Source: a virus (Duplodnaviria; Caudoviricetes). From it: DNA of 41,095 nt. Of this stretch, positions 8,594 through 40,928 are shown piece by piece; position 1 is the stretch's first letter, and the number at the start of each line of letters is the position of its first letter. Location of the stretch: IMG/VR virus record IMGVR_UViG_3300048630_000450, positions 1-41,095 of that record, one strand, 5' to 3'. Position numbers and translations under genes: made by a program. Under the pieces are notes generated by a model. That model worked only from the letters and a program-made list of their open reading frames with translations, did no database searches and was not told where the DNA came from.

Positions 8594-8790
8594 CACCAGC
8601 AGCGGGCTGACCTCATGGCGCGACTCTACCCGGAGCAAAGCCCTGAAGATCACGCCCCATCGCAAAGAGTCCTGTCCAGGGAAGAGGCAATTGAAGAACT
8701 TCGAAGACGTGCCATGATCTCCCGGATCCTCCCCGGTGGCGGCGGCATAGCAGAACTTAGAAAAAGGACCTCAGAAAAATATAGATCGGA
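7559..8790 (+). repeat. Diverged duplicated module (copy 1 ~7559-7825, copy 2 ~8462-8790)
   Basis: GLxSFREFDRxVRE..SEEWxRxV..LSRxEAIEExRR..KxRS occurs twice, with DNA-level similarity (e.g. tccttccgYgaatttgaccgc; ctgtccaggSaagaggcaattgaagaa). Confidence 0.85.
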
Positions 8791-17100: not shown

Positions 17101-20100
17101 TCGACGTTCTCAACTCAAAGGACTCCCAGAGCATAGAGAGGCGCGGCGGGAAGACCACTTCGAAGACCCTGAAAAAGGGCAACGACGACTACGACAGAAT
17201 GGTGAAGGTTGGGTATGTCTTTGAACCGATCACCGGCGCCAGAGGACATTCGGGAGGCGTATTTCCTCCAGACCGGGTATTGGGTTCGATCAGGGGATGG
17301 GCTCTCGAACAGGGTCTCCGAGGAGCGGGCCTGGAACCGCATCCTCGCACCCCCCTCGACGGCACAGTCTTGCCTCCCTTCATGCCGGAAGAAGTTGTCG
17401 AAAAGGTTATTGAGAAAATTTACAGGAATCACTATGACCAGATTGGAGACCAACACAAGATAAAGCGAGAGGGATTTGACAGTTTCGTAAAGGAACTCGA
17501 AGCCCGCCAGTTGCAAAGAACTGTGGAGGCAGGAGAGGACACCATCGATTGGGATGCCATGGTCCCGTTGAAGCCTGACGACATCGTCCTGATCAACGAT
17601 GAACACTGGGAAGCCATTACTGAGGTACTAAAAGATTATGGCATAACCCCTGATCTCGATTACATGCAGGAATATGGCCAACGCAACAACAATCCTTCTG
17701 CTGTTAAGGCCGGCGGCAAAGATGACGCCCATCATGGCACTCTGAGGTGGCTGCGCGGACACCTCGTAGGTCCTCCGGGCGGTGTTTTCCGTGACGAGAG
17801 AGATGCTGACAATAAGCCCATACGAACAGTGATCGACACCAAGATCATCGATGAAGACATGAAACGCATTGCAGACGGCGAGCCAGGCTGGCTCGGAGCC
17901 GTCCCGCCGTCCAGTCAGACTAAAGGGGCACGCCTGAACGACTACACCAAATCGGGATACGAACGAAACAGGGACGACCCCCGAGGACCACGGATGCTTT
18001 ACTCCTTCGGCCAAGGAGATGTGGACGGCGTGGAGCACTGGGCTGGTCGGGTTCTACAAACAGATCAACAGAAGAAACTGAATGCGATTCTGGAAGACCT
18101 GGTTGTCCTGGCTGAGATGTTTGATGAAGCCGGCATGAGCAGCCCTGCAACTCAGGACCTCCTCGACAGGATCACAGGTGAAACGAAAAAGGCACTCAAT
18201 CAGTCGCACGAAGGCCCTCTCTCTGAAGAGCGGATAAAGCAAATCGACGACGCCGTGGCCGAGGCGCTGGCGGCCACCTACCAGGACGATGACAGCGGCG
18301 GTGGCGGCGGTAGCGGCGGCCTCGCGAGTCGGCGAGATGACGACGGTGAAAGCCTCCAAGATGCTTATCGCCGCCACCTGAAAGCCAAAGGAATTCAGAC
18401 CGACGGTGAGCGGGCATTCGAAGAACAGTACGGGTACGAACTGCGCTCCGGCGACGGTGATTGTTATTCCGCCGCGTATCGCGCTGCTACAGAACTTGTA
18501 GAAAAGGGCGTGGACGCAGACGGCGATCCTGTAACCAATGTCCGGGTTGTTGTCGGCTCACCAGTATTCCCAAAGGTGGGGGAGCGATCCGGGCACGCCT
18601 GGGTTGAGTACGACGCAGTCAAACCTCCTCCTCCGTTGATGAGTTCAGCCGATCGGGACCATGCCAAAGAGCAAATCCTTGCGTTGGTCGAAGACATGGA
18701 TCTGCCGCCTGGACGGAAACAGGAAACAATCGACTCCTTCCTGGATGCAATCGATAGGGCAAACGAAGCCAACGCTGCAGCGCCAGTGCGTGACGTAACC
18801 ATGGTTCGCGATTACGCCAGTGTTAGAGACGGCGACGATATTTTGGAGTTCGACGACATGGATCGCGGACGACTTGAGGCGTTGAAACCCGACATGGCCC
18901 GGGACGTGTACTACAGGGCGGGCGAAATGGAAGAGGTGGATATCGCCGGACGCTTCTCTCCTGCCGAGTACGAGGAAACGCAGGTGGGCTTGTTCGGTAG
19001 CGACTTTTACGATGGCGACGCCACGTTCCTTACACGGGAGCAGGTCGACCAGCATCTGGAAGACATGGGGATCGATGGGGGGCTTGAGTCCAAGAGAACC
19101 GACGACGCAGATGCAGAGGATGCGCGACTCCACGATGAAGCGATAGAGCAGTTGCGTGAGATATTCGTCGAAGCGGGAAGTGAGCAGGGATGGCAGACCC
19201 TGGATGACCTTGCTTACGAGATGCGCCGTTCACCTCGTGGAATGATGATGGGAGGGCGCAGCAGGCCAATCAATCCCGAGAACCTGGAAGCCATACGAGA
19301 ACTCGTCGAGGAACGAGACCCCGAATTCATGGGAGACCTCGTTGAAAGCCAGCGGATTAGAGAAACTAACGAGGGATACAGGCGGCTAACAGAATCTGGT
19401 CTTGATTCTGGCGTGGGAGTTCATGACCGGGAAACCACAACCAGTGTTCGCGGCTTGTTCGATGGACATGTCAAAGACGGTGATCCCATCATCTTGTACC
19501 ACGGCGGCCCTGTTGATCTGACCGGGGACGTTGATTATGAAGTCAGCCGTAACGACTCGGGCCAGTGGGGACCGGGTATCTACACGACTGCCAGTGCGTT
19601 CCCGGCAATCAAAGGATGGGCTAATCCTTGGCAACGCAATGCCGAGGGCGGATACGACACCGTCGATCCCGGATATTTGCATACAACAAGGTGGAAGGGC
19701 GAAAACCCGCCTCGGATATTGGACGTTATGGATCCAATCCCAGACGATGTCCTCGATGAAGTTGTGCTCCCCACCATCGACATACTGGGGAAAGAGGTCG
19801 CAGATGCCATGACCGCCAGAGCAACCAAGCCTCGGGTTCGCTCTGACGGGAGTTTTACAGGCGGAGGCTGGAAACCGGAGTATGCCTGGGTTGCGGAAGA
19901 ACTGGACGAACTTCGTGAAGATATCGAGCGCAAGCGCGATGGTCTTTCTGGTGGCAGGGATGCTTTGACTGGCAGCGAGACTCTGTTGCAACTGCAAACA
20001 TTCCTGCAAACAAATGAAGTAGGAAGAGAGCATGGGGGAGAAGGATGGAATGACGATGGATTCATTCCTTCAGACCGGGTAAAAGCCATTCGCGACCAGA

Positions 20101-23006
20101 TGAATGCTGCCATCAAAGATCTTGGCTATGACGTAATCAAGTCACACGAGGTGGGCATCCGGGAGATGACTCGTACCGACTACATGTTCTTGGATCCGGA
20201 CATGGTTGAGTTCGTAGATGTTGCAACAACTCATAGTTTGGGCGGTTTCGGCAATGCATCCATAGGTGAGATGGCCGCAACTGTTCGGAAACGCGCCACA
20301 GCCAGAAGGGAAGCAGACGGGGGAGGTCTTGCGAGTAGACGAGCGGACGAAGAAGAATTCATCCCCGGTCGTGACCGGATGGAGGGGGAGATGAACGCGG
20401 ACCCAGACGGTCTGCTCTCCAGGCGAAACGCAGGCCGTCTTCGTCCAAAGGAAGAGTTGGCTGCCTTGCGGGAGGGCCGCTACCATCCCCAGATTGGGTT
20501 TCCGGATCCGGTCACACCACCCGAATCTCGACAGCCCCTTTGGGACGTGCGAGGGAAACTGGCTGCGTCACACCTTACAGACGTAGATCTTATGGAACTC
20601 GAAACATATCATTCCCTACTCGGCAAATATCTAGAACGCAGGCAGACCGTAAGTGACACCTATCAGCGTCTTTGGAAGGAAAACGACATAGAGGTATCCG
20701 GATATCCCACTTGGGTAACCGACCGGCTCTACCATCGACCACTAGACACTCCTACCAAGACGACACTCCCGGTAAGGTATGCGCGACCCGGGACAGTAGA
20801 CCCCGACCCCGACAGCCGCATCGCCCATGCCGAGAAGATGCAAGCAGCCCTCGTAGATGAATTCTTTGCTCGACATCTCGGTGAGGATTGGCGAGATACC
20901 AATCCGGATACGCGACTAATGTCAGACGGTACCAGGGGGAAGTTTGGCAAGACTGCAATCACATTCGCCAGCACAGGCCTGAATTATTCGGAAACACTAG
21001 AGTTATTCGAACAAGCCGAATTGCTTGCCACTCACCACGATACTTTCAAGAAACACTGGCAGAAGAATTTTGACGCTATGAAAGAATACGCTAAAACCTC
21101 TATCGCTGTACGGCAAGTTGGAAGAGCCCACGCCCGCAGCGCGGCTGATGCTGGGGAAGAAGCAGAGTTTGATCTTGGCGTTACCCTCTACATGCCAGGG
21201 AATGACAATTTCCGTGGGGCTGTTTCGACTGACCACATAGCAATGGTTAACATGCTCGAAGATATGTTGTTAGTCTCCGGCCACGGGCCACTGTCCGAAA
21301 GTCAAGTGGAGTTACTTGGAAACGCCTCGGAGATAGTACTCCTTGAGCATCAAAAATACACTGAGACCAATACTCTCACTATGGACAGAGTCGGAGATAA
21401 GACCGTCCCGTATGAGTCGCTCGATACACTCCACGAAGAGTGGCATAAATACGATGAGGATGCGGTAGTAGTTACCGTCCCTATGCAGATGAGACGGAAG
21501 GTGAAACGTGCAGGGATTGCACATATCGCTAATCATCTCACTCCAGAAGAAAACGATGCAATCGATGCGGCTTTTGGTACAGCCGGAGCAGGAGATTCTG
21601 ACGCCTTCGCTGCAGGCAATGTTTCCTTTTTGCTTCAAGCCATACACGACACATGGGCACATCAATCCGCCGGTTACGCATCGAAATCCCTAATACTCCA
21701 ACAGGTGATGGCTAGGAACCTGGGATGGGACGACCAGAAAATCGCCGATGACCTGTTCCATGGCGTTGACACCTCGGGCGTCTTCGGCCACAAGGACATG
21801 GACGTGCTGGCACCGTCAATGGCCAGGGGTGGCATAACCTACTCTGAAATTAAAGAGCGGGCAGCGGCAGTTATTGAAAGCCTTGGCGATTCGATGTTAA
21901 CGAATGTGGATGACCGCTCTGGCCGGATCCATATACGTCGAGACTCAGCAACAGGGAATTGGATAGCGCAGGATACAACCACCGGGGAAACCTGGGAGGC
22001 GCCGGACCTCGAGCAAATCGAGAGGATCACGGGCCTCACCCCGGCGGTCGAGGATGTTGCCAGGGACGAAGGGATCAGTCTGGAAGAAGCACAAGAGATC
22101 GTCAACAACGCCGCTGGGCCACTCCGCCCGACCGTGAAATCGTTTACGCTCGGTCTTACTTTCCGCGAATCAGCGGAGCCCTTTGAACAACTCGATCGCC
22201 GAATCGGGTTGGTGTTAGACGACCTCGACGCAGACAGTGTCGCGGAAGAGGTGCGACTCGGAAGGGAATTGGTGGGACTTCGACGTGGGTCGGGGGCTTC
22301 GCTCACACCCGCCGAGCGACGCCGCCGTCGGGCTGAGAAACCTGAGGACCCGGAGGACCCAGGCCCATCCGCTCCAGGCTGGCATTCGGCGGTGACTATG
22401 CCTCCTCACCCGGATGACGTAAAAAACCCCAGAGAGATTCTGTGGACCCTGAAGGATCTGCTGCCATACACGGAAGACAGATTGAAGCCAGGGGCTACCA
22501 TGGCAGAAGCCAGGCGAATAAAAAAGGCATATGAGCGAGTCAGAGCCCACAGGGCCGCACGCGACAATGCACGCCACATGGTTACAGCCCTCGTTTACGA
22601 ACATTACGTTGGAGATGCGTTTAAGGCTGCGCTCGCTGCGGAACAACGAACCACCGCAGCACGGTTAAAGGAAATGGGAGTAGAAACAATACCCCTGTAC
22701 CGGGGATTTATTCTCGGGAAAGATGACGCAGACTCTCTATTGAGTGCGTTGGGGGACACGGGGGCACTTTACGACGATTACATGATGCCATTGACTGCAT
22801 GGTCGACTTCAAAAGAGACCGCTAAAACGTTCGGCACTCTTCACCAGGGTGCAAACGAACCCGACCTAACGGGATTTGTTGTCAGGTCTGATGTTTCTGT
22901 CGATGATATAGTCGGTTTATCAACCCACGGCTTCGGCTGTATATCGGAAGGAGAATGTGTTGTCGGACACGGAGAAAGACACCTCACAATCGAAGCAGTC
23001 TACTAA
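14106..23006 (+). CDS. Polyvalent protein 3 (~2966 aa): DUF3721-like x2, zeta-toxin-like P-loop kinase, three ART-like domains, transglutaminase/papain-like Cys protease
   Basis: ATG 14106 lies just after the upstream stop. Motifs: GCSGAHQH..WMPC and GC..WTPC; YGAPGSGKT..NPDDYK..QGTG..YDNS; YRALP..INPGDWV..EFGW; GDCY..HAWVE; LYHGG..GPGIYTT..GYDVI..FLDP; LYRG..AWSTS..EGECVV. Confidence 0.85.
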   Translation: MATSTDLVASRAAALRLAQQMGCSGAHQHPDGKWMPCATMEEYEELVKKDKKNTVRVVEQRRRYRNSKGKNKRDWEPLAERGVTSIDTIAGGGLIGGSVKAAPWAPDEEDPDVFTTPRLARRRARQLGCIGVSRRVSRSGNIVWTPCSNMTDYAKRTGSTAFGRNFQRRRARRTLERAVAREVRRQLRRKKSLMETLYEGKALGRKLNRARVAATTPFNRDARDADMDMLVQEGTVWERPATPRVPDLPRVPGLRSRRSTGRRHTERRIAPRIDPAQIPKNVPGDENFWDNHRLMERLTELAGYAQMQKLRRANPDEKLYRLARQVEPLLGIDPVTGSRVGERGVPDGDFEVRPIHRYDGARRFRWGNNSEIPTEMEHLPNEVLDRISRDALAEFDRRQETERLRLLERGEEFEPEWYVRGLASRRSEGLTAGPVGPTEQERSGRRRAERGADRAQRRRDIRDRHEFEMDMADPRVNPRVTETEIDEMAEYYEFAEATGGFQSVRGFKLTPEEDRDLSDTEKAAKYRKATLDAVGEEHRGKPVQRVHWVYGAPGSGKTARTSLGHLLVPDASEAAHTNPDDYKRFHKRWNFGEGSGESHQFSRRESERTLSEALDKGMDVVVQGTGKDGRLMNTALFPDSDYRKGRRGDTASVMHYLHVPDDERSRRIADRRTNQRRRYGAEPEDAMNVLDQVVKYIEEGRVDEAHIYDNSGSIDETPPLVATFKDGNLVIYDEDKFNEIFDPKDPDGRPTVFRGRVADRPQVTAYSKSDDPRRGKTYAERLREEGENPGGFRKWDEARREKAIRERKQLEVGRASGDTASYRGMHTAPTKSEEGGDTLDNLTNMLPLREGESNRIRVRVYGSSGSDPEYRRANDEMEAVFDAVTGKPDEMITVYRALPSSRDASENDQINPGDWVSPSPTYAAIHGEGPLRGEYDIVEARVRAGDLVSEGNSLYEFGWDPEPDPVRLSYYTALDGLTEEEAEAVVDLLGRGFRSRRDLDVLNSKDSQSIERRGGKTTSKTLKKGNDDYDRMVKVGYVFEPITGARGHSGGVFPPDRVLGSIRGWALEQGLRGAGLEPHPRTPLDGTVLPPFMPEEVVEKVIEKIYRNHYDQIGDQHKIKREGFDSFVKELEARQLQRTVEAGEDTIDWDAMVPLKPDDIVLINDEHWEAITEVLKDYGITPDLDYMQEYGQRNNNPSAVKAGGKDDAHHGTLRWLRGHLVGPPGGVFRDERDADNKPIRTVIDTKIIDEDMKRIADGEPGWLGAVPPSSQTKGARLNDYTKSGYERNRDDPRGPRMLYSFGQGDVDGVEHWAGRVLQTDQQKKLNAILEDLVVLAEMFDEAGMSSPATQDLLDRITGETKKALNQSHEGPLSEERIKQIDDAVAEALAATYQDDDSGGGGGSGGLASRRDDDGESLQDAYRRHLKAKGIQTDGERAFEEQYGYELRSGDGDCYSAAYRAATELVEKGVDADGDPVTNVRVVVGSPVFPKVGERSGHAWVEYDAVKPPPPLMSSADRDHAKEQILALVEDMDLPPGRKQETIDSFLDAIDRANEANAAAPVRDVTMVRDYASVRDGDDILEFDDMDRGRLEALKPDMARDVYYRAGEMEEVDIAGRFSPAEYEETQVGLFGSDFYDGDATFLTREQVDQHLEDMGIDGGLESKRTDDADAEDARLHDEAIEQLREIFVEAGSEQGWQTLDDLAYEMRRSPRGMMMGGRSRPINPENLEAIRELVEERDPEFMGDLVESQRIRETNEGYRRLTESGLDSGVGVHDRETTTSVRGLFDGHVKDGDPIILYHGGPVDLTGDVDYEVSRNDSGQWGPGIYTTASAFPAIKGWANPWQRNAEGGYDTVDPGYLHTTRWKGENPPRILDVMDPIPDDVLDEVVLPTIDILGKEVADAMTARATKPRVRSDGSFTGGGWKPEYAWVAEELDELREDIERKRDGLSGGRDALTGSETLLQLQTFLQTNEVGREHGGEGWNDDGFIPSDRVKAIRDQMNAAIKDLGYDVIKSHEVGIREMTRTDYMFLDPDMVEFVDVATTHSLGGFGNASIGEMAATVRKRATARREADGGGLASRRADEEEFIPGRDRMEGEMNADPDGLLSRRNAGRLRPKEELAALREGRYHPQIGFPDPVTPPESRQPLWDVRGKLAASHLTDVDLMELETYHSLLGKYLERRQTVSDTYQRLWKENDIEVSGYPTWVTDRLYHRPLDTPTKTTLPVRYARPGTVDPDPDSRIAHAEKMQAALVDEFFARHLGEDWRDTNPDTRLMSDGTRGKFGKTAITFASTGLNYSETLELFEQAELLATHHDTFKKHWQKNFDAMKEYAKTSIAVRQVGRAHARSAADAGEEAEFDLGVTLYMPGNDNFRGAVSTDHIAMVNMLEDMLLVSGHGPLSESQVELLGNASEIVLLEHQKYTETNTLTMDRVGDKTVPYESLDTLHEEWHKYDEDAVVVTVPMQMRRKVKRAGIAHIANHLTPEENDAIDAAFGTAGAGDSDAFAAGNVSFLLQAIHDTWAHQSAGYASKSLILQQVMARNLGWDDQKIADDLFHGVDTSGVFGHKDMDVLAPSMARGGITYSEIKERAAAVIESLGDSMLTNVDDRSGRIHIRRDSATGNWIAQDTTTGETWEAPDLEQIERITGLTPAVEDVARDEGISLEEAQEIVNNAAGPLRPTVKSFTLGLTFRESAEPFEQLDRRIGLVLDDLDADSVAEEVRLGRELVGLRRGSGASLTPAERRRRRAEKPEDPEDPGPSAPGWHSAVTMPPHPDDVKNPREILWTLKDLLPYTEDRLKPGATMAEARRIKKAYERVRAHRAARDNARHMVTALVYEHYVGDAFKAALAAEQRTTAARLKEMGVETIPLYRGFILGKDDADSLLSALGDTGALYDDYMMPLTAWSTSKETAKTFGTLHQGANEPDLTGFVVRSDVSVDDIVGLSTHGFGCISEGECVVGHGERHLTIEAVY

Positions 23007-23398: not shown

Positions 23399-24733
23399 AT
23401 GTCACAGGACACTTCCCGTTTGGGCGAACTGCAGACCGCACTTCGTACCAAGATGGACTCTAACCAGACTATTGCTGACTCCTTCAAGGTGGAAGACGAT
23501 GTTCTAATTGTCGATCAGGAGCGCAAGAGCGCTTTCGACAAGAACATGGTCGACATCAAGGAGTTGCAGAGTCTTATCAAGGGCATTCAGGACCTTGATG
23601 AAATCAATGAGTGGGGCGCAACCCCCGCTCCGCCCGAGGTCGAAGTCGAATCGGTTTCTGGTGCTGCTGCTGCAGGCGCTGCTTTTGCAAGTGCCCAGCC
23701 TCAGTTCAAGACTCTCGGTGAAGCCTTCTGCGATTCGGAGGAGTTCAAGTCCCTCCAGAATGGTCGCAACGGCGCCAACATGCCGAACGCTTGGGTTTAT
23801 GAGGGTTCGCTGACCACGAAGAGTGCCTACAACGTCAAGGATGTCTACTCGGGTCTCCCGACCGGCACCCCTGGCGCATTCGGCACCATTCAGCGTGATC
23901 CGATCGTCATTCCGCCACAGCGGACGAAGCGAGTTCGGGAACTTTTCCCGACACGGACCACCAACGCGGCCATCGTGGAGTACTTCCGCATGACCGGGTT
24001 CACCAACGCTGCTGCAGCAGTCGGGGAGCGCTCAGGTTCGCCTGAGGTCTTCACGGCCAAGCCACAGTCGGCATTCACGTTCGTTGGCGAGCAGGCTCCC
24101 GTGCGGACCCTCGCTCACTGGGAGGCTGCTCACCGCAACGTCCTGGCCGACGAGCCGCAGTTGAGGTCAATCATCGACAACGAGTTGATGTACGGCCTGA
24201 GGCTGCAGGAAGACGCTCAGATCCTTAACGGTTCTGGCTCAGGTGAAAACCTGACAGGCGTTCTCCAGACCACAGGTATCCAGACCTACGCATGGTCGGC
24301 CGGTGCAACACTTCCGGTCAAGGACACCAAGGCTGACGCCATTCGGCGCGCTGCTACCTTGTCGTTCCTCGCATACTACGAGCCCACGGGCGTCGTGATG
24401 CATCCGAACGACTGGGAAGACATTGAGTTGACCAAGGATTCGAACGGCCAGTACTTGGTCGCCATTTCCGTGGCACTCGGTGGCGAGGCTCGCGTGTGGC
24501 GGATCCCGATCGTTGAGACTCCGGCTATTGCTGAGGGCACCGCTTTGGTGGGCGCTTTCGGTACTGGCGCGCAGTTGTACGACCGCGAGCAGGCCAACAT
24601 CCGCGTTTCGGAGCAGCACAGTGACTTCTTCGTGCGCAACGCAATCGTGATCCTGGCCGAGCAGCGTCTCGCGCTGGCAGTGAAGCGCCCTGAGGCCTTC
24701 ACCAAGATCACCTTCGATGCGGCTCCTTCCTAG
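23399..24733 (+). CDS. Major capsid protein, HK97 fold
   Basis: GAGGTG RBS; coiled-coil delta-like N-terminus; VRTLAHW..VLADEPQLRSIIDNELMYGL..EDAQILNGSG; VMHPNDW; KDSNGQYL; FVRNAIVILAEQRLALAVKRPEAF. Confidence 0.95.
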   Translation: MSQDTSRLGELQTALRTKMDSNQTIADSFKVEDDVLIVDQERKSAFDKNMVDIKELQSLIKGIQDLDEINEWGATPAPPEVEVESVSGAAAAGAAFASAQPQFKTLGEAFCDSEEFKSLQNGRNGANMPNAWVYEGSLTTKSAYNVKDVYSGLPTGTPGAFGTIQRDPIVIPPQRTKRVRELFPTRTTNAAIVEYFRMTGFTNAAAAVGERSGSPEVFTAKPQSAFTFVGEQAPVRTLAHWEAAHRNVLADEPQLRSIIDNELMYGLRLQEDAQILNGSGSGENLTGVLQTTGIQTYAWSAGATLPVKDTKADAIRRAATLSFLAYYEPTGVVMHPNDWEDIELTKDSNGQYLVAISVALGGEARVWRIPIVETPAIAEGTALVGAFGTGAQLYDREQANIRVSEQHSDFFVRNAIVILAEQRLALAVKRPEAFTKITFDAAPS

Positions 24734-25006: not shown

Positions 25007-25192
25007 GTGCCTAAGAACTCATCCGACAGCGAAATCTGGGAAGAGTGGGAACGTCTGGCCACCGGATTCAAAGGCTCAGTCGAAGAACTCGAGGAGTTAA
25101 TGGACGAAGAACTCACCGACAAAAGGCCATGGCGTCACAAGCAACCCAAGAGTAAGGATAGTGATGTCAGATTCCGACCACACGAAGATTAA
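25007..25192 (+). CDS. Hypothetical protein (61 aa)
   Basis: ORF overlapping the start of the nuclease gene. Confidence 0.5.
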   Translation: MPKNSSDSEIWEEWERLATGFKGSVEELEELMDEELTDKRPWRHKQPKSKDSDVRFRPHED

Positions 25193-25550
25193 ACGCTTTT
25201 GCTACAACGCAAAGGTGGTTAGGGTTGTAGATGGAGACACTATCGACTTGATGGTTGATCTGGGGTTTTCTATTCATCACAAGGTTCGCGTGCGTCTCTA
25301 TGGGATCAACACGCCAGAAAGCCGGACCAGAGATCTCGAAGAGAAGGCTCTGGGCCTTAAGGCAAAAGACTATGTAGTGGATTGGTTGGACGGACATCCG
25401 ACAATCGTGCTCCAAACCAGCAAAGACAAGGCCGGCAAGTATGGGCGCATTCTCGCCACCATTTGGTCAGACGGCGAGATGACTGCCTGCCTCAACAAAG
25501 ATCTCCTCGACAGTGGAAATGCCGTGGAGTATTTCGGCGGGAAACGTTAG
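25164..25550 (+). CDS. Thermonuclease (SNase family)
   Basis: RVVDGDT, RVRLYGINTPE and GKYGRILA motifs; AAGGA RBS. Confidence 0.9.
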   Translation: MSDSDHTKIKRFCYNAKVVRVVDGDTIDLMVDLGFSIHHKVRVRLYGINTPESRTRDLEEKALGLKAKDYVVDWLDGHPTIVLQTSKDKAGKYGRILATIWSDGEMTACLNKDLLDSGNAVEYFGGKR

Positions 25551-26422: not shown

Positions 26423-28345
26423 CTACCGAACAGGGCATGCACCAGTGTTGCAATCATCAAAGACAACAGAATCAGAGCCCACAGCCACCAACGGAACTGA
26501 CAGATCGACACTCGCAACTGACTTCTCATACTCTTTTTCTGTAATTTCTTCGTATGGAGGCAGAGGGAAATTATGATCGGTGTGTAACAAGAATGACACA
26601 CTCTTGATCGAATTCTTGTAGTTCTTCTGCAGCCACTCCTGGATTTCCGACAGTTCATCCATCTGGTAATAAACCGTCACCGACACAGCGTTGTCCGCCC
26701 ACTCGGTTTGCATGCGCTTGATCCACTCCAGTTGATCTATCGCCGACATCTCGCTGGCCAAAACAGCGTTTTCTGGAGACTGGCAAGGGAATTCGACAAC
26801 CTGACTGGTGCGATCCTTCTGCCCATCTAAACCAACATCCCACTGGACCTTGTAGCCACGGTTACGACACGCCTCCACCAGCGGATCCGTTGAACGGAAC
26901 CTGACCCGACGGATGTAGTAGCGGGCGTATGCCGGGTGTACGCCTGGTGTAACCCCTGGCAGTAGAGACAGCGTCCCTGAGGGTTGAACTGTGGTCAGGC
27001 GAACCGACTTGGGCAAGTTGTGCTGCTCCGAGTAATCCTCGTCTAGCCCGGACAGGTATTCATAAGCCAGTGGCAGCCAGGACAACTGTTTGTCAGACGC
27101 CTGCAACACTCCCGTTACAGACTGGCCCAGCCTTGAGTTCTTGGCAACGATCTTGGTTGTTTTCTCGTAAGGATACTCAAGCCGTGTGACCTGCTTCTGT
27201 GCCAGATAAAGCAAGCGGGAAATCTCCCGCATCTGCTTCAGCGACTCAATATTTGGGAGAAAAATCGTCGCCAGATTGCAACTCTCCCCATCCCCGAGCG
27301 CAATCTCGGCGCAGGGGTTAAACCCTTCAATGCTGTTATCTGTCTTTGCCTCTCCGAGCCTTCCAACCCTGCGAGCCAACTTACGATTAACCAATCCATA
27401 CGGTTCTCCATTGCCGTTATACCCCTTCCACAACTCCGGCAGGATCTCGTCGTAGGTGTCGGCATAAACGCTGTTGTTGCTGTTTGATCGCCAGGCGGGG
27501 ACAGTTCCCGTCGCCCAGTTCTTGGCTCGGAGGAACAGAACGTCATCAGGGTCACCGATGGCGATCTCAGCGGAGCGTCGTGCCGAACCGGACACCACCA
27601 CCCGTCCAATTATGTTACATATATCTAGAACATCTACGGATCGTAACTTTTTGCCCTCTCGACCCTGCACAACTGAGCAAATGTCAGCAATTCCATCAAT
27701 CAGAGCACCAGGTCCCGAGGCGGTACCACCAAACGTCTTGAGTTCAGCCCCCGACTCCCGAATCAAGATCGTTGAGTAGGTGAAGGACTTGCCCGTGTCG
27801 AAGAATGACTTGAGGGTGGAGTGGAGTAGGCGACTCCATCCCTGGCGCGAGTCGGGCACGATGATATCGGCATCGTTGGTGCGCTCATGCGTGATGGCAA
27901 CGCCAAGTTTCACCTTAGGGAGTTCGTGGATCTTGGCCCGCTCTACGGAAAAGCCCACGCCTCCACCGAGCATCAGCATGTCGAAGATGAACTCGAAGTC
28001 CTCGACCGTCTCGACATTGACGAAGTAGCAATTGTTGAGGCTCGCGCCGCCCATGTTCTGAACGAGGGGTGTACCCAACTGCCACAGCCCACGGCCAGCA
28101 AACGAGCAGCGAAGGTGGAACATGTGGTCGAAGAGGCGTTCAATCTCGGCCTGCGTGTACGGAACGCCGATCTCAATGGCGCCGTTGATTACCCGCTGGA
28201 TCGTCTCCGGCCACAGTTCGGTACGGTCGTCCCCGTTCTTGCGACTGTAGGTCCTGAGGAAGACGATCTCGCCCAACCCTCCAAACCCCCAGGGCACCGC
28301 TTGTGTCTTATAGGTGTCGACGAAGGAGTCTGCGATGTGGGGCAT
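26423..28345 (-). CDS. nrdJ: Class II (B12-dependent) ribonucleotide reductase, monomeric RTPR type
   Basis: RTYSR, GRGLW, NNCYF, RRSAEI, NPCAEI and TTVQPSGT motifs, with C-terminal CxxxxC (CNTGACPVR). ATG 28345 preferred as start. Confidence 0.93.
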   Translation of the reverse strand: MPHIADSFVDTYKTQAVPWGFGGLGEIVFLRTYSRKNGDDRTELWPETIQRVINGAIEIGVPYTQAEIERLFDHMFHLRCSFAGRGLWQLGTPLVQNMGGASLNNCYFVNVETVEDFEFIFDMLMLGGGVGFSVERAKIHELPKVKLGVAITHERTNDADIIVPDSRQGWSRLLHSTLKSFFDTGKSFTYSTILIRESGAELKTFGGTASGPGALIDGIADICSVVQGREGKKLRSVDVLDICNIIGRVVVSGSARRSAEIAIGDPDDVLFLRAKNWATGTVPAWRSNSNNSVYADTYDEILPELWKGYNGNGEPYGLVNRKLARRVGRLGEAKTDNSIEGFNPCAEIALGDGESCNLATIFLPNIESLKQMREISRLLYLAQKQVTRLEYPYEKTTKIVAKNSRLGQSVTGVLQASDKQLSWLPLAYEYLSGLDEDYSEQHNLPKSVRLTTVQPSGTLSLLPGVTPGVHPAYARYYIRRVRFRSTDPLVEACRNRGYKVQWDVGLDGQKDRTSQVVEFPCQSPENAVLASEMSAIDQLEWIKRMQTEWADNAVSVTVYYQMDELSEIQEWLQKNYKNSIKSVSFLLHTDHNFPLPPYEEITEKEYEKSVASVDLSVPLVAVGSDSVVFDDCNTGACPVR

Positions 28346-28432
28346 TGACCTGCGATTTTCGATTCGGTAGGTGAGTAGGGCGGGGATGAACAACCCCTAC
28401 CGATTGTAGACCACAGGGAAATACTGAAACTG

Positions 28433-29053: not shown

Positions 29054-30079
29054 TTACACCAGTGACAAAAGGGCCTGCTGAACGCTTTGCTTGTTCTTTG
29101 AAACCCACGAAGTGTAATTCATCGATGACGCCGCCTTGGCATCAGCCTCGCCCTCTCGAACATGGTCGAAGTATTCAGCGAAAGCGTTGTAGGTAGACCA
29201 TCCGTTGTACCCGTAGCCGGCAGCATTCTTGGCGGAGGTGTACAAGCCACGCATGGTCATCTGAACTTCGTCGCGATGGTCGCGTTGCCGATCGGTGAAG
29301 GAACTCGAATCCGGGAACACCGTATTGAACACGGTGTCGAATCGTCGGGAGCCAGCCGGAACGGAAATTCCCAACAACTTCTCGGCCATCTGCTGGAAGC
29401 CTCGAGCCCACTCCACTGAAATGTTGAGTATGTCTCGTGCGGCTTCTACGGCCTTGTCGGCATTCCGGGTGTGCTTGGCTCGGAAGATGCTCTTGGCCTG
29501 CCGCATGCCAAAGACGACCGTGTTCTTGCAGACCGCCCGAATGGGGGTATTGGCGAATGTGATCGGAGTACGTCCATCGTGACCGTTCTGAACGAGCAGA
29601 TAGCGATCGATCTTGTCGTTGATTCCATTGGGATCGATCACTAGCGAACCCAGGTCGAGACAGGCAAAGAACTCCCGACCACCACGGAGAACCCCTACGG
29701 TGTCGACAACTGCGTCGCCCTTGGAAGCCCCCACGATGTCCAAGGCCCGCAGTAGGCAGTCCTTGTTCTGTTCGACAACGAAGCGGGTGCCTACCGTGGC
29801 AAGCCCATCGAATGATCCGTCCGGATTCACCCGGATTGTGGCCCGACTGTTGCTGATAACGACTGGCTCGCCATCCAAATTGTAGAGAATCTGACCGTCG
29901 CCGTCGACTGCGGCTACGTCGGCAAGCACCACATCGAAGTCGGCCTGCGCAGCAGTAAGCATCGCTTCGGCAGTCTGGAGTCCACGCATGGGAGTTCCTA
30001 GCCGATGCCATGGAATCTCACGATCAGCATAAGCCATGCGGACTACACCATTATCGTTGACTTCGAGTTCGTGACTCAT
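29054..30079 (-). CDS. DUF932 family phage/plasmid protein
   Basis: PWHRLG, GVLRGGR, YLLVQNGHDG, TPIRAVCKNT, KHT and WSTYNAFAEYFDH motifs. Confidence 0.9.
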   Translation of the reverse strand: MSHELEVNDNGVVRMAYADREIPWHRLGTPMRGLQTAEAMLTAAQADFDVVLADVAAVDGDGQILYNLDGEPVVISNSRATIRVNPDGSFDGLATVGTRFVVEQNKDCLLRALDIVGASKGDAVVDTVGVLRGGREFFACLDLGSLVIDPNGINDKIDRYLLVQNGHDGRTPITFANTPIRAVCKNTVVFGMRQAKSIFRAKHTRNADKAVEAARDILNISVEWARGFQQMAEKLLGISVPAGSRRFDTVFNTVFPDSSSFTDRQRDHRDEVQMTMRGLYTSAKNAAGYGYNGWSTYNAFAEYFDHVREGEADAKAASSMNYTSWVSKNKQSVQQALLSLV

Positions 30080-30365: not shown

Positions 30366-31328
30366 TCAACCCGAGTTCCAAACGGTGTCCAGCCCCCCGA
30401 TCAGGCCTCCGTCCCGGAGGAAGTCGACAGCATACGACAGCCGGAAGTGATACTTCCCTAGCGTGCCCTGCGGGTAGCGCTCTTCCAGCAGTCTGACCGT
30501 CTGCTCAAAAGGCCAGCCCTCATATTGGGCAGTAAAGAGGTCATACCCCACCGGGAGAGGATTGGGTGGCGCTTGTAAGGTGGGCAGGGTCGTAGTGGTC
30601 ACAGGCGCGAAGGTCGTGGTTGTCGGGGTTATGATGGCCTGCGTTGTAGTGGTCACAGGCGGAACCGGGCTGGGTGTCGCTTCAACTATGGCCTGTGTCG
30701 TAGTTGGCGGGGTCGGACCCGAGGTGGTTTCCGCCCCTTGATTGGACCCCGCCGGAACTGTAGTAGTAGTGGTTGTCGGAAGGTTCGAGACCCACACGCC
30801 GGCGTCGTTGATCTCCATAACCGGAATCGAGTATCCGTAGTTGCCCATGCAGAGCGACTGCCAGACGGTGAAAGTCGGGGTCATCGGATTCGCTACGGCC
30901 CAGTAGGGATCGTCAACCCGGCGAATGGTCATGTTGGCGTCCAGAATCCACTCGGGGACTAGACCCGCACTGAAGTTCAGCGCTTCGATCTCCGGGTAGT
31001 CCCCGTTGAGCCAGTCGTCAAGGGACAGGATCTGACCGTCGGTCAAGCCACGCGCCCACTGATCCCAAGCAGGGATAGTCCCATCCTCTTGGACGTTGGT
31101 GCCCTTGCCGGTGGTGTGTTCGGCTTCCCAATAACGAAACACCACGCCGGAGGGGATCGTCCCGTCGGCTTCCATCGTGGTGATGTGGGCTGCCCACTCG
31201 TCGTAGGTCATATGGATGAATCCGTACTCGGTGGAGCAAGGCGAGTAGATCACGTCATGCGTGGCACTGGCCGGAACGGCAGCCAACACAGCGCCAAAGA
31301 TGGCTGCGGCAAACAATGCTTTCATCAT
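30366..31328 (-). CDS. Secreted protein with signal peptide and Thr/Pro-rich linker
   Basis: MKALFAAAIFGAVLAAVPASA signal peptide, repeated PTTTT tracts, GAGGT RBS. Confidence 0.8.
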   Translation of the reverse strand: MMKALFAAAIFGAVLAAVPASATHDVIYSPCSTEYGFIHMTYDEWAAHITTMEADGTIPSGVVFRYWEAEHTTGKGTNVQEDGTIPAWDQWARGLTDGQILSLDDWLNGDYPEIEALNFSAGLVPEWILDANMTIRRVDDPYWAVANPMTPTFTVWQSLCMGNYGYSIPVMEINDAGVWVSNLPTTTTTTVPAGSNQGAETTSGPTPPTTTQAIVEATPSPVPPVTTTTQAIITPTTTTFAPVTTTTLPTLQAPPNPLPVGYDLFTAQYEGWPFEQTVRLLEERYPQGTLGKYHFRLSYAVDFLRDGGLIGGLDTVWNSG

Positions 31329-31353: not shown

Positions 31354-31603
31354 TCTAGGGCGACAACCATCTGGGAGTCGCTATTGGCATGGCCCTAGAG
31401 AAAGACCCGGCGGTAGTGAAATGGGTATCGAACCACACCTGGCCGGGTAGGAAAAGCCTGACGATGCACGTTATGGGAGTCGTTGCTGGGGTGGTCAGGT
31501 GAGAAAGGCCCGGCGCGACGAGGGTGGGTATCGAGTCATCGGTGGCCGGGTAAGAAACAAGGGGGCGACACTCGGATGGGTATCGGAGAGTCACTAGCCC
31601 CCT
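31354..31603 (-). ncRNA. TIGR-like dual-spacer stem-loop guide RNA array, 5 units
   Basis: Each unit (minus strand) is stem-CCA-N9-CGA(TA/CT)CCCA-N9/10-CG-stem', with a period of ~51-52 nt. Stems vary in sequence between units but stay complementary; linkers are U-rich. Confidence 0.88.
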
Positions 31604-31802
31604 AGGAAGCCTCTCGTTCTCGAACGAAGCCAATTTGACGAATATCCTCCTTGACGCAAGACAGGATTCGCCACACCGGATCACCGACAATCTCAGCGGC
31701 GCGCCGCGCCTCGTCGGTAGGTTCCGGCAAGGCGAGAATCACCTCAATGATCTGATCAATGTCGGCTTGGTGCGCCTCGGAGAGTTCGCTGTAGCGACTC
31801 AT
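31602..31802 (-). CDS. Small hypothetical protein (66 aa) between the Tas-like gene and the array
   Basis: MSRYSELSEAHQADIDQIIEV...; TGATG coupling to the upstream gene; its TAG overlaps the first array stem. Confidence 0.65.
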   Translation of the reverse strand: MSRYSELSEAHQADIDQIIEVILALPEPTDEARRAAEIVGDPVWRILSCVKEDIRQIGFVREREAS

Positions 31803-32749
31803 CAGGCAGCCTCTGCTATCGCCGCCACTCCCAAATCGGAGCGAGCAGCCACCCACAAATCCCTCAACATCGTCTTCATGACCTTGCGAACGGCCATGTT
31901 GTGACGGTGGATCGGGCGACAGGGCTGACCCTTGCACTTCTCGCAAGGCTGCCCCTCGCGAAGATCGTAATGGGCTCGCGCATCGTCGTAGGTGTTCTTG
32001 TACGGGGAGCGAGGCTTCACAACGCCGTTCTTGTCAGGTCCGCCGGCCAACTTGAGGCACGGCTGGGCCAGATTCCAAATCAGGGATTTGGTGAACTTTG
32101 AGCCGGCAGCCAAAGCCTCTTGCTGCGACTCGCCCTTGTAATGCTTGCGAGACGCATCGCCCAGGCCACAGTACGACCAGAGTTGCGAAACCATGCGCTC
32201 GAAAAACAACTCGCCGTCAGGCTGGACGGTCGCGACGAGGAACTTTTTGTCCTCTTTCCCGCCTTCCGTGTAGTCGGGGTTTTCCTCCCAATGCATTGGA
32301 AAGGCGATCACGGGATGACCGATCTCGCCAAGAACGCGAGCAACGGTCGGCGGGCCAACGCCGGAAATGGCAAGCCACTCCGTCATGGCTGGCCCGGAGC
32401 AGACACCCAACATGGCGTCGGTAGTCATGCGCTCTGCTGCTTTTTCGGAAGCGCAAAGCAGGCCGTAAACCGACATGGATTTCAGGGACTTGCGGATGCG
32501 CTTGCGCTCATCGTCGTCCGTGAAATCTGCGTCGATGAGAGAAACGACCTCCGTATCGGTCACGGTATAGTCGGCCCCTATAAGCGCATCCAAATAGATT
32601 GGATGGGTCTTGCCCAAGGGCTCTTCGAGGTCGAGGCACACGTCCGCATAGATGCGGTTTTCGTGTCGAATCCGAGTGTCCTTGAGGTCCGTGAGGTTTC
32701 GGGCGTAAAGCCGGAGATCGCGGAAATCTGCTTGCAGTTGCTCATACAT
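31802..32749 (-). CDS. TasA-like Nop-domain (IS110-related) RNA-binding protein with no nuclease domain
   Basis: RIRHENR helix, ISGVGPPTVARVLGEIG, SQLWSYCGL, HRHNMAVRKVMKTMLRDLW. No RuvC/DEDD or HNH region is visible. Adjacent to the dual-spacer array. Confidence 0.8.
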   Translation of the reverse strand: MYEQLQADFRDLRLYARNLTDLKDTRIRHENRIYADVCLDLEEPLGKTHPIYLDALIGADYTVTDTEVVSLIDADFTDDDERKRIRKSLKSMSVYGLLCASEKAAERMTTDAMLGVCSGPAMTEWLAISGVGPPTVARVLGEIGHPVIAFPMHWEENPDYTEGGKEDKKFLVATVQPDGELFFERMVSQLWSYCGLGDASRKHYKGESQQEALAAGSKFTKSLIWNLAQPCLKLAGGPDKNGVVKPRSPYKNTYDDARAHYDLREGQPCEKCKGQPCRPIHRHNMAVRKVMKTMLRDLWVAARSDLGVAAIAEAA

Positions 32750-32822
32750 ATTTATGACCCTTTCGGGATAGGTATCGGTTATATACGGGTATTTCTTCTT
32801 GGGCCGAAGCCCGAGATCTAGG

Positions 32823-33380
32823 CTACTTGTCGGTGATCGTCACCTTTAGTGCAGCCTCTTCAAAGGTGTCGCTGTGGAGTTCATCCAGTACCGCCAAGGG
32901 CTCCGAGTAGGAGCGGCGGAGCGTGAGATGGCCGTCGATGGCTCGATCGATCTCGTCGATCTTGTTCAGGAAGTCTGCTCGGGTCATGTGCTTGAAGAAC
33001 ACGAGGCGACCGTTGATGTGGTGGCGTTGATCCATCACGATGGGATTGAAGAAGTGGGCGTATGGACCCTTGATGGTCGTGCCGTCATCGATGCGGACGA
33101 CCTTCTTGTCCTTCTCGTCAGCCGCCTTCTGCTCCAGCACCGCGTTCTTGCTACGGCCTCCAGAGTTTCGAGCATTCCATCGGAACATGGGAGACAGCCA
33201 CGCGATCAACACGTCAACGCCAACATTGTCGGTGATGAGCGCTCGAAACTCTGCGACAAGCGCATCGTAGATGTCTTCCCGATCGGCACCTTCGCGCATC
33301 AGGCGATTGGCGACGGAAGAAGCGGAGGAAACTTCTGAAGCGATGAGAACTTCTGAAGCGGTGAGGGATTCGGTAATCAT
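32823..33380 (-). CDS. Hypothetical protein (185 aa), first gene of the Tas-like operon
   Basis: Co-oriented, directly downstream of the promoter; GAAGG RBS-like sequence. Confidence 0.75.
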   Translation of the reverse strand: MITESLTASEVLIASEVSSASSVANRLMREGADREDIYDALVAEFRALITDNVGVDVLIAWLSPMFRWNARNSGGRSKNAVLEQKAADEKDKKVVRIDDGTTIKGPYAHFFNPIVMDQRHHINGRLVFFKHMTRADFLNKIDEIDRAIDGHLTLRRSYSEPLAVLDELHSDTFEEAALKVTITDK

Positions 33381-33418
33381 GCGACGGTCAACCTTCTGAT
33401 AGATGTGCTGGACGAATC

Positions 33419-33447
33419 ACACTACAGGCGGCTTCGCCGACTGTCAA
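33419..33447 (-). promoter_or_regulatory. Sigma70/SigA-type promoter driving the Tas-like operon
   Basis: TTGACA-N17-TAGTGT on the minus strand, about 40 nt upstream of ATG 33380. Confidence 0.7.
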
Positions 33448-33853: not shown

Positions 33854-34780
33854 ATGACCGTCAACCTGCGATTCCGTGTACTCGCTGGCGTCCTCCTGTC
33901 CATTCTGTGGATCGGAGCCAATCTCGCCTGCGCCGGCTCTACCGGGAGAGCAGAAAACGCGTCCACCTTCTCCGAAGCCTTTCGAGTTATGCCCGCCACG
34001 ATCCCCAAACCCGCCCCGCTCGAAGTTCTGTCCCCGCCGGTTACAACTTTCCCCTCCGCGAAACCGGCGGGGGCAACCACTATTCCAGCCATAGCGCCCA
34101 CGATACCCACCAGGATTCCGCCGGATATAAACCGCATACAAACGACCGGTACGGTGTCCCCACCGAAATACGCCAACTCCATGACCGGCCAGCAGTACCG
34201 GTATTTTGAACGAAGTCTGGAAGTAACTGCCCTTCAAATGGAACTTGGAATGCGATCCGTTGACGGCGTCTACGGACCACAGACACGCAAGGCCCACATC
34301 GATGCAATCGGTGGTCCGACTGCTGCCATCTACCGCTTCTACCCGGAAATCGGACAAACACCGACCCCCTGTTCTCCCGCCCAGGAGCCAGAAAAAACCT
34401 GCCTGCCGGGTGACGGGCATTACGAACTCCCGACGCTCGAACAACTCATCCACCAATACTTCAAGCCGAAACATCACGAACTAGCCCACAAAATCGCATT
34501 CTGTGAGTCCAGCGCAAAACCACACGACACCGGATCGGCCGAAGTGTCCAGCGCCCTAGCCATCGGCTGGTTTCAACACTTGGCAAAGTATTGGGTCCAA
34601 CGATCCGAACAGGCGGGCTGGAAAGACTACGACCCCTTCAATGGACGGGCCAATGTCGCTGTCGCCGCGTGGTTGTTCTACGACAGCGGCATCCACCATT
34701 GGAATCCTTCGCGGTCGTGCTGGGGCGCTGCCAACCAGCCGCCACCCACGACATCATCCATGCCGCCCGCAGAGGCGTAG
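33854..34780 (+). CDS. Secreted lytic transglycosylase (SLT-like) with peptidoglycan-binding domain
   Basis: Hydrophobic N-terminus, P/T linker, ALQ..VDGVYGPQT (PG_binding_1-like), and IAFCESS..GWFQ..DPFNGRANV..AAWL..HW. Confidence 0.8.
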   Translation: MTVNLRFRVLAGVLLSILWIGANLACAGSTGRAENASTFSEAFRVMPATIPKPAPLEVLSPPVTTFPSAKPAGATTIPAIAPTIPTRIPPDINRIQTTGTVSPPKYANSMTGQQYRYFERSLEVTALQMELGMRSVDGVYGPQTRKAHIDAIGGPTAAIYRFYPEIGQTPTPCSPAQEPEKTCLPGDGHYELPTLEQLIHQYFKPKHHELAHKIAFCESSAKPHDTGSAEVSSALAIGWFQHLAKYWVQRSEQAGWKDYDPFNGRANVAVAAWLFYDSGIHHWNPSRSCWGAANQPPPTTSSMPPAEA

Positions 34781-39732: not shown

Positions 39733-40288
39733 ATCCGCTCAGACGCACGTCGCACTTGGTGCAGAACTCAGCCCACGGGTAGGACTGTCGATACTCCATG
39801 GGGTGTGAGCAGTCGAGGATGTCAGTGACCTTGAGATTCATGGTGTCTCTGATGAGGGCAGACAGGGATACGTCGGCCCTCTCGGCAGCACGCTTCCACC
39901 GTTCCCTGTCGCTCTCGGTGGTCCGTATGAGGATCTGCTTGTCAGCAGGCCCATCGTCGTCACTCACCCTGGTGGACACCGTGAGGTCCATGTCCTCAGC
40001 CAGGTCGTGCATGGCAGCCTCGATGTTGTCCTGCCCGGGGGCAAACGTCGCCTCCCCCCCTACTGCCTCAACAGCCTCATCGATTGCAGGCCCCACGGGT
40101 ATACCAGGTACCTCATCTGGCTCGTTCCAGTTAGCGGCATCAGGATGCAGTTTGTTCGCCGGCGATCGCACGGGTGGTGCTGTCGCGAACGGCATAGGGG
40201 GTAGGGGTACCGAAAAGGAAACCTCTATCGAATCGTCGCCCGTCACCGTCGGATCACCACCCGGGATACTCATGGGTTCAGTCGCCAT
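39731..40288 (-). CDS. Ribbon-helix-helix-like DNA-binding protein with C-terminal Zn motif
   Basis: KQILIRTTESDRERWKRAAERADVSLSALIR; CSH..CTKC. Confidence 0.65.
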   Translation of the reverse strand: MATEPMSIPGGDPTVTGDDSIEVSFSVPLPPMPFATAPPVRSPANKLHPDAANWNEPDEVPGIPVGPAIDEAVEAVGGEATFAPGQDNIEAAMHDLAEDMDLTVSTRVSDDDGPADKQILIRTTESDRERWKRAAERADVSLSALIRDTMNLKVTDILDCSHPMEYRQSYPWAEFCTKCDVRLSG

Positions 40289-40928
40289 CATCTACCTCAT
40301 CTTCCACTATCTCCGCATCAACGATCTCTGTTGTTCTCAGCAGGTCCTGAGATGCCATTTTTCCCAATGCGCCTTCAATCTCTGTCGGTGAGACGACGCC
40401 CGATTTCACCATGAGGGCCAGCAGTTGCTTGGCCTCCTGCTCGGGTGAATGAGCGGTGGCGCTAGGGAGAGCCTGCGCCCCTGCCATAGCGAGCCGGATC
40501 GAGTCGGTGGCGGCGTCAAGCCCAACCGACACATTCACCTGTTTCTGCTGGACTTCCATACCGAGCAGTCTAGACCGACGATCCATTACGGAGAGAACCT
40601 GCTGGATTGCCTTCATATCCGGCTCCACGGAGACCTCCGTACCGTCATCCAGCGTGAGACGCCGATGTTGGGTCATCGGCCAAATCGCCGCCTGCAAAGC
40701 GTCTAAACGCTCCAACTCCATACGAAGCACCTCCGGGTACGCCAAAAGTGCCTCAGAATTCAACTTTTCGAGTTGGCGGTTCACGGATCGGCCCACGACA
40801 GCAACACTGACACCGAATCTACGGGCGATCTCCTGACTGGCTATGCCGGCCTGCTTCATCTTGAAGATGCGAACATCACGTTCGGCTAAAAACTCACGGG
40901 TGAGTGTGGCCTTAGTTGCTTCTGCCAT
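40278..40928 (-). CDS. HTH protein, terminase small subunit-like
   Basis: N-terminal HTH (SQEIARRFGVS), then ELERLDAL..W and AIQQVLSVMDRRSRLLG. Confidence 0.65.
   Translation of the reverse strand: MAEATKATLTREFLAERDVRIFKMKQAGIASQEIARRFGVSVAVVGRSVNRQLEKLNSEALLAYPEVLRMELERLDALQAAIWPMTQHRRLTLDDGTEVSVEPDMKAIQQVLSVMDRRSRLLGMEVQQKQVNVSVGLDAATDSIRLAMAGAQALPSATAHSPEQEAKQLLALMVKSGVVSPTEIEGALGKMASQDLLRTTEIVDAEIVEDEVDDGD

Follow-up and report, generated by a model that had tools for sequence, protein, structure and literature searches.

The virus record IMGVR_UViG_3300048630_000450, analysed here from position 1 to 41,095 (the window), encodes a stem-loop TIGR-TasA system. The system type is known and the locus is a member of it. 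Units with the shape of guides are present in an intergenic array and also, in frame, within the linkers of two neighbouring genes, here named gene H and gene S. We are fairly confident that this arrangement, together with a predicted TasA dimer acting as a roadblock, is the best explanation of the locus as a whole. The earlier note on this DNA, made from the sequence alone, had proposed the same identity, on which profile comparison, Foldseek and the arrays now all agree. Its extent of 31354..33447 is too small, since four to five further units lie inside neighbouring genes. The intergenic array consists of the following units (L numbers denote loci in other records):

31560..31603, minus strand: unit U1, whose first box C reads CTA
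31509..31550, minus strand: unit U2, from the strict scan
31457..31499, minus strand: unit U3, with a 10-nt spacer B and the same spacers in L001 and L061
31405..31448, minus strand: unit U4, from the strict scan
31354..31399, minus strand: unit U5, the last of the array and a candidate vsr-matching guide

Both strands of the window were scanned for strict units (box C, 9-10 nt, box D, 4-5 nt, CCA, 9-10 nt and box D, plus a closing stem). Nine units with a perfect stem of at least 5 bp were found, versus 0.15 expected per 41 kb from 60 order-2 Markov sequences. Five are the intergenic units already noted, whose minus-strand positions, boxes, stem pairing and ten spacers (9 nt long except for one of 10 nt) had been read correctly; four are new and lie at 30545-30753. 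The stems had also been said to covary, and this was borne out: across ten aligned units (the nine and a damaged plus-strand unit, S1, found at 34089) the stems differ yet pair, with six stem pairs holding in 93.3% of cells and 20 cells changed on both sides. Both values lie above all 500 shuffles (0/500 reach either) and far above slid registers, a lenient control as the structure was drawn from the same sequences. Instead of edge repeats, the units of the window have variable palindromic stems. In the intergenic array each unit folds as a hairpin of its own (z = -3.14), and CUU follows within 0-1 nt of the stem base in 5/5 intergenic but 0/4 intragenic units. CUU at the stem base is described by Xu et al. 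(10.64898/2026.09.09.750476). The homologs carry arrays, too: 46/54 related tas loci, near-copies and fragments included, have at least one unit with a stem of at least 6 bp. Box D reads CG at 317/326 positions in 163 distinct units of relatives. CG had been taken for a novel variant; it is the norm of the clade, and in the TIGRFinder methods the standard box D of stem-loop units is TG or CG (Xu et al. 10.64898/2026.09.09.750476). A search of Rfam gave a single match, far under the gathering score.

The protein of the system is encoded on the same strand:

31802..32749, minus strand: TasA, 315 aa, a coiled coil and a Nop domain, no N-terminal nuclease, a short C-terminal tail without Tyr/His, and a Cys-rich insertion

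A TasA profile built from 29 of 32 homologs matched the solved chains of TasH (21kl, E 1.3e-12) and TasR (9mty, E 6.4e-10), with the alignment beginning at residue 80 of TasH and residue 121 of TasR. Because the profile aligns only past them, the nuclease domains of TasH and TasR have no counterpart in TasA. The predicted model (pLDDT 84) starts with a long helix; going by this and by the start of the profile, TasA has no N-terminal HNH or RuvC domain. When the model was submitted to Foldseek, ranks 1-10 were all TasH/TasR chains (TM-score by query 0.42-0.51), ranks 11-15 were IS110 recombinases and Nop5 came after. The fold comparison of 31802-32749 that had been called for hence upholds a Nop fold without nuclease. 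The tail after the last conserved motif has 16 residues and no Tyr or His, as read from the sequence without superposition on TasH. Ahead of the last helix lies the Cys-rich insertion (31895-31950, minus strand), which is present in 8/8 close homologs aligned, is longer in some distant ones and may be a zinc site. The TasA open reading frame (ORF) has no Pfam match and is labelled transposase via PHROG 4285. This label, together with IS110 recombinases at Foldseek ranks 11-15, would suit a remnant of an IS110-like transposase with bridge-RNA-like units. That reading is largely refuted and keeps hardly any probability: TasA is without an N-terminal DEDD/RuvC domain, Tas chains outrank IS110 by at least three orders of E-value at the top, multi-unit arrays accompany the protein in the 46/54 loci, and the gene neighbourhood is kept in close relatives.

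Three further features belong to the surroundings of tas:

33419..33447, minus strand: promoter-like site, TTGACA-17 nt-TAGTGT, seen in the sequence before the 185-aa ORF; the tas start lies about 670 nt downstream of it
32823..33380, minus strand: ORF of 185 aa, no family assigned, with 9 homologs; directly upstream of tas in L001-L005, L054-L060 and L062
31602..31799, minus strand: ORF of 65 aa, whose stop codon overlaps the first stem

The promoter previously reported for the tas gene exists as a site, but it precedes the 185-aa ORF and does not lie directly on tas. Likewise, the gap of about 200 nt between tas and array is present, but it is filled by the conserved 65-aa ORF, which is kept in 5/5 relatives compared. 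Similar promoter-like hexamers occur at the position of 33419-33447 in 5/5 relatives compared; a consensus promoter scanner did not list the site (33447-33419). The site is predicted to drive the tas operon. The 185-aa ORF has no match in Pfam or PHROG, and the 65-aa ORF, gene H and gene S have no Pfam family either.

The units outside the intergenic array lie in gene H and gene S:

30366..31328, minus strand: gene H, 320 aa, no family assigned, with a signal-peptide-like start, two conserved regions and a Pro/Thr-rich linker
30706..30753, minus strand: intragenic unit H1, with an 8-bp stem; near-identical in L031
30654..30697, minus strand: intragenic unit H2, from the strict scan
30600..30643, minus strand: intragenic unit H3, from the strict scan
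30545..30590, minus strand: intragenic unit H4, from the strict scan
33854..34780, plus strand: gene S, 308 aa, divergent, with a Pro/Thr linker, SLT-like by language-model features; in 32 loci
34082..34127, plus strand: intragenic unit S1 in gene S, with intact boxes and a stem mismatch in the window; the stem is intact in L056 and L005

Gene H is widespread (148 homologs, 23 loci), gave no usable match in the language-model atlas and had only low-complexity matches in 301 genomes. Gene S falls into atlas clusters with SLT/SLT_3 (score 0.91-0.93), which is a lead only. H1-H4 recur with a period of 54 nt (18 codons) and span residues 192-262 of gene H, matching the stretch 192-256 that is unstructured in a low-confidence model. 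In a set of distinct ORFs, 29 for gene H and 40 for gene S, the nested units of relatives are sense in 34/34 cases and antisense in none, and they share one frame, in which the boxes coincide with xCC (box C) and xCG (box D) codons. These codons encode Ser, Pro, Thr or Ala, so that one stretch can be guide and Pro/Thr-rich linker at once. When gene H of the window was recoded synonymously with the codon usage of unit-less homologs (3000 trials), at least one unit arose in 0.47% of trials and four units in 0/3000.

Units were present in 3/8 tas-linked gene H ORFs versus 1/21 others, and in 10/12 tas-linked gene S ORFs versus 3/28 others. The five unit-less tas-linked gene H ORFs comprise a truncated one and four in which another N-terminal domain has been substituted; in three of these four loci H1 persists just downstream in non-coding DNA (L002/L059/L135). 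The corresponding exceptions for gene S are the window's own copy, with its damaged unit, and a truncated one. Four long tas-less kin records (385 kb) held no unit. At L002:9380-9580, gene H has given way to a version whose N-terminal domain is different and whose linker is plain; downstream, in non-coding DNA, two units and a vestige of the former C-terminus are left. In trees of the folded parts the unit-bearing genes are scattered, and three changes are needed for gene H and at least four for gene S, where the window's copy sits on a long branch. A single origin of the nested arrays was rejected on these numbers. Linkers and domains appear to recombine, with shuffling of domains around a retained linker.

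That unit-bearing genes do not form one clade would also be expected if an array had recombined into tolerant linkers and its units were now decaying passengers with no present function, and the broken stem of S1 in the window and the CCG or CCC box C of some units point the same way. We nevertheless regard passengers as quite improbable, given that the stems vary between units and lineages yet pair, that boxes are kept on silent codon positions and that H1 persists after loss of the host ORF. The nested units are likely both protein code and guide, and we think it rather probable that they work as guides. Several observations weigh against this: taken alone, the intragenic array shows no unit-by-unit folding (z -1.24), the CUU motif is seen in 0/4 intragenic units, four unit-bearing ORFs have no tas on their own contig, and the counts above are inflated by many near-copies among the ORFs and draw on tas-less records that are mostly fragments (4-76% complete, one 100%).

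The spacers of H1 are identical in the non-coding copy of L002 and 17/18 identical in L031. L005 carries the same spacers with A and B swapped, 15/18 identical to L031 and 14/18 to the window; among 1953 pairs, swapped matches of this quality are expected by chance 0.001 and 0.013 times, respectively. Since swapped spacers keep guide function (Faure et al. PMC12045711), the exchange would rewrite the linker peptide but spare the guide. In addition, 11 pairs of units, one of them an indel artefact, have one spacer in common next to a different partner, versus well under 1 expected, which points to recombination of half-units. Comparison of spacer A with spacer B at offsets from -5 to +5 revealed no clear similarity. 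Swapping and re-pairing of half-units are direct clues to how arrays might diversify without an integrase.

How the two spacers of a guide meet on DNA is fixed by a published rule, according to which an 18-bp target is read by spacers abutting on opposite strands (0-2 bp gap). For this clade we lean slightly towards a different geometry, in which the two spacers share one base pair and the site is 17 bp long. Spacers A and B end in complementary bases in 24/57 (null 15.4, p 0.0065) and 44/141 units (null 31.7, p 0.007). In 26/30 loci, both halves have G+C maxima at spacer positions 3 and 6, which fits a codon register under a 1-bp overlap. For the 276 distinct spacers of L006-L030, L063, L136-L146 and L148, G+C is 0.74 at position 3 and 0.72 at position 6 versus 0.37-0.59 elsewhere; position 9 is low in G+C, and the pair most often formed by the last bases is A/A. 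Of the substitutions that separate orthologous guides in the close clade, 12/18 fall on positions 3/6/9 (p 0.004), and where intragenic pairs differ at one spacer base, 4/6 changes alter the host protein yet are silent in the 17-bp reading. The case has its weak points: a distant set is without the 3/6/9 bias (2/12; pooled 14/30, p 0.09), the overlap base is complementary in only 42% and 31% of units, and spacer overlap was judged unlikely by Faure et al. (PMC12045711). The earlier note's proposed search for 18-mers showed no excess in kin phages: sites of 18-20 bp in 1.4 Mb of self and kin-phage DNA gave 5 matches with at most 2 mismatches versus 6 and 7 in the wrong orientation. Sites of 17 bp in kin phages gave 9 matches versus 14-17 in controls, again no excess. 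At L061:885, a relative has a guide that, in the 17-bp reading, comes within 2 mismatches of a nuclease gene found in kin phages (L056/L115) and resembling window 25164-25550; this is within chance.

Alternatively, the nested hairpins might act in the gene H and gene S messages as elements bound by TasA, which would thereby control translation or decay or be titrated, and not as DNA guides. The constant sense orientation (34/34), the absence of CUU after the intragenic stems and the lack of a target found for H1 agree with this. A mere binding site, however, needs no fixed spacers, and those of H1 persist from lineage to lineage, in non-coding DNA and after the A/B swap; moreover, some substitutions alter the host protein yet spare the 17-bp reading. 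We therefore consider such elements improbable and retain dual-coding guides as our reading.

A candidate target emerged for U5, which is kept, in three variants, in 13/13 close loci checked. In the 17-bp overlap reading, all three variants spell DGC[F/Y]W plus two bases of a His codon. DGC[F/Y]WH is a Vsr motif, and a genome scan was then used as a test. Vsr is a DNA-repair protein of bacteria, and its gene is often found next to those for DNA methyltransferases. Among 121 genomes of the class Acidimicrobiia, the U5 17-bp motif had 17 sites in 14 genomes versus 7 for the reversed control. The vsr-matching loci that were fetched read FVDGCFWH or YVDGCFWH in 12/12 cases and are Vsr-like, with the Pfam family Vsr in 3/3 tested. 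A C5 methyltransferase adjoins vsr in the six loci tested, upstream on the same strand in five and converging in L354, and the vsr site of L354 equals the L005 guide at 17/17 bases. DGCYWH, the Tyr variant found in the window, is natural, occurring in 6/150 Vsr homologs.

From these data it is conceivable, and we put it forward tentatively, that the conserved last guide silences vsr-containing methyltransferase operons of the host. Several points speak against it. U5 of the window itself differs from the 12 fetched vsr sites at 4-5 positions (1-3 of them non-wobble), and none of the 17 matches is of the Tyr type. The 17-bp motifs of U2, U3 and H1 occur in 1, 0 and 1 of the 121 genomes, which is chance level, Vsr is widespread (9718 representatives), the vsr loci have 63-71% G+C versus 56% for the phage, and the host class behind the set of genomes is a guess. 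Searches of five kin records found no vsr, and PADLOC could not name restriction enzymes among the genes downstream of vsr. The host-genome motif searches covered U2, U3, U5 and H1. Under the 18-bp reading, the U5-family motif was found in 0/401 genomes, the H1-family motif gave 9 unrelated matches in IMG/VR and was found in 1/401 genomes, and the U3 motif gave 13 matches, 1 of them in the guessed frame; these candidates were discarded.

Under the published 18-bp abutting geometry, U5 would instead be aimed at the rIIB gene of competing phages (motif DGCFLA). Besides agreeing with the published rule, this idea has a prediction on its side, as frame and motif (DGC[F/L]LA) were derived from the U5 variants before the scan, and 8/23 exact matches in IMG/VR then fell, in the predicted frame, in one conserved protein, which was named rIIB for the three tested; one site equals the L001 guide at 18/18 bases. 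Yet the window's variant, DGCLLA, is found in 0/113 rIIB-like sites (among the matches listed, 120 of about 470 stretches), the matching phages have 32-43% G+C, no WhiB-like motif and few genes in common with this group, and no other guide is enriched in rIIB-bearing phages. An rIIB target thus seems improbable. Since one guide fits two conserved genes exactly, one of these matches, if not both, must be due to chance, which counts against vsr as well, and the chances are about even that neither vsr nor rIIB is the target.

The most likely course of events starts with one transcript that would begin at the upstream promoter and span, in this order, the genes for the 185-aa protein, TasA and the 65-aa protein, then the array and gene H. 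Going by published homologs, the intergenic hairpin units would be cut out near the CUU at the stem base and each hairpin RNA loaded on a nuclease-free TasA dimer, one guide per dimer. Spacer A would pair with one DNA strand and spacer B with the other, and TasA would bind without cutting and block transcription at the matching site as a roadblock. Nested guides might be released from the messages of gene H and gene S or arise from internal promoters. A DNA binder or repressor had been suggested before. Such behaviour is reported for another TasA, with non-cutting DNA binding and repression by MbTasA (Xu et al. preprint, 10.64898/2026.09.09.750476), and binding by PlTasA was seen structurally (Guan et al. 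10.64898/2026.08.11.744272); the host or competitor-phage target that went with the suggestion is unproven. A roadblock in vsr could cut off the genes downstream while the upstream methyltransferase stays on. It is tempting to speculate that actinophages hide dual-coding guides in linkers of unrelated genes for secreted proteins, read 17-bp sites in codon register that tolerate silent drift and, with a conserved guide, roadblock vsr in methyltransferase operons of the host as an RNA-guided anti-defence whose natural target can be identified; as a complete chain this is doubtful.

Natural targets and the origin of spacers are left open in the TIGR-Tas papers (Xu et al. 10.64898/2026.09.09.750476; Faure et al. 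PMC12045711). The 17-bp geometry and the vsr target, if true, make the target question accessible to one binding assay. If guides are nested in other genes, intergenic searches undercount TIGR repertoires, and the supply of such guides may be tied to expression of the host genes. Altogether, the locus is less novel than thought with respect to the CG box and more interesting for the likely dual-coding guides in two foreign genes, the natural spacer swap and a geometry and target that are unproven. Literature searches for TIGR and tigRNA found no guides in non-tas genes and no vsr target, within a scope that did not extend to supplements and the TIGRSafari tables, which may list the locus.

The window (56% G+C) encodes a major head protein, a ribonucleotide reductase and a single-strand binding protein (Pfam/PHROG). 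Some of these genes were placed as follows:

23399-24733, 26423-28393 and 29054-30079: the major head protein, the ribonucleotide reductase and a DUF932 protein (Pfam/PHROG)

The phage is large and likely has an actinobacterial host; that the host class is Acidimicrobiia is a guess. Among phage records with tas homologs, 86/88 are actinobacterial phages, and WhiB is encoded by tas-bearing relatives. Genome contigs with a related tas are actinobacterial by title in 8/12 cases. The closest contig is binned in a Phycisphaerae genome, and a close tas locus in such a bin counts against an actinobacterial host. A search of sequencing runs matched marine metagenome runs, with no RNA run among the matches listed. 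The tas homologs held by 83 Mycobacterium phage records are annotated as transposase or hypothetical. In Mycobacterium phage Bethlehem, 6.8 kb around the tas homolog were searched and no unit with a 6-bp stem was found. Gordonia phage Morrissey (L148, 2634-3770) has five CG stem-loop units around and inside the gene 42 ORF, a tas homolog, and is thus a cultured test system bearing the same kind of unit. Stand-alone arrays that look non-coding lie 12-15 kb from tas in two relatives (L128:16030-16120, L129:14330-14630), and L124:2044-2250 is a stand-alone, apparently non-coding array in a 31-kb fragment without tas. Elsewhere in the window, 8615-13792 and 14106-23006 are very long ORFs of 1725 and 2966 aa, the latter with DUF3721 and a weak zeta-toxin-like match. 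The ORF at 40278-40928 (minus strand) belongs to PHROG 645, labelled RNase E, whereas Pfam gives weak helix-turn-helix matches only; it is of note with regard to the nuclease that processes stem-loop guides.

Compared with known systems, the locus is closest to stem-loop TIGR-TasA (PlTasA, BlTasA, MbTasA; PMC12045711, 10.64898/2026.09.09.750476, 10.64898/2026.08.11.744272). It has in common with them a Nop-only Tas, CG as box D, CUU at the base of the intergenic stems, carriage by phages, several sub-arrays and the order of the unit, in which two successions of box C, 9-nt spacer and box D, 4 nt apart, are enclosed by a stem. It differs in having units in frame in two non-tas genes and a candidate natural target, and its clade shows signs of a 1-bp spacer overlap and a natural A/B swap. 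Intragenic guides are described in the text available of Xu et al. (10.64898/2026.09.09.750476) only within tas itself. There, the wedge-loop intragenic tigRNAs of BlTasA likewise lie in frame in disordered segments and leave the ORF unbroken, but their host gene is tas, whereas the hosts in the window encode unrelated, apparently secreted proteins, one on the opposite strand, with homologs that are mostly unit-less. TasH and TasR of the dual-repeat TIGR systems (PDB 21kl, 9w04, 9mty) have the coiled coil, the Nop core and the CCA box C in common with TasA and the units of the window. They also have a nuclease, edge repeats and, in TasR, UG as box D, none of which is seen in the window locus, as well as a Tyr/His processing loop, described by Xu et al., which is not seen in the window's TasA. 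IS110 bridge recombinases and Nop5 of the box C/D snoRNP are related through the Nop-type RNA-binding fold, with weaker Foldseek matches; TasA of the window differs from both in having neither a recombinase nor a methyltransferase-recruiting domain and in being accompanied by a multi-unit guide array.

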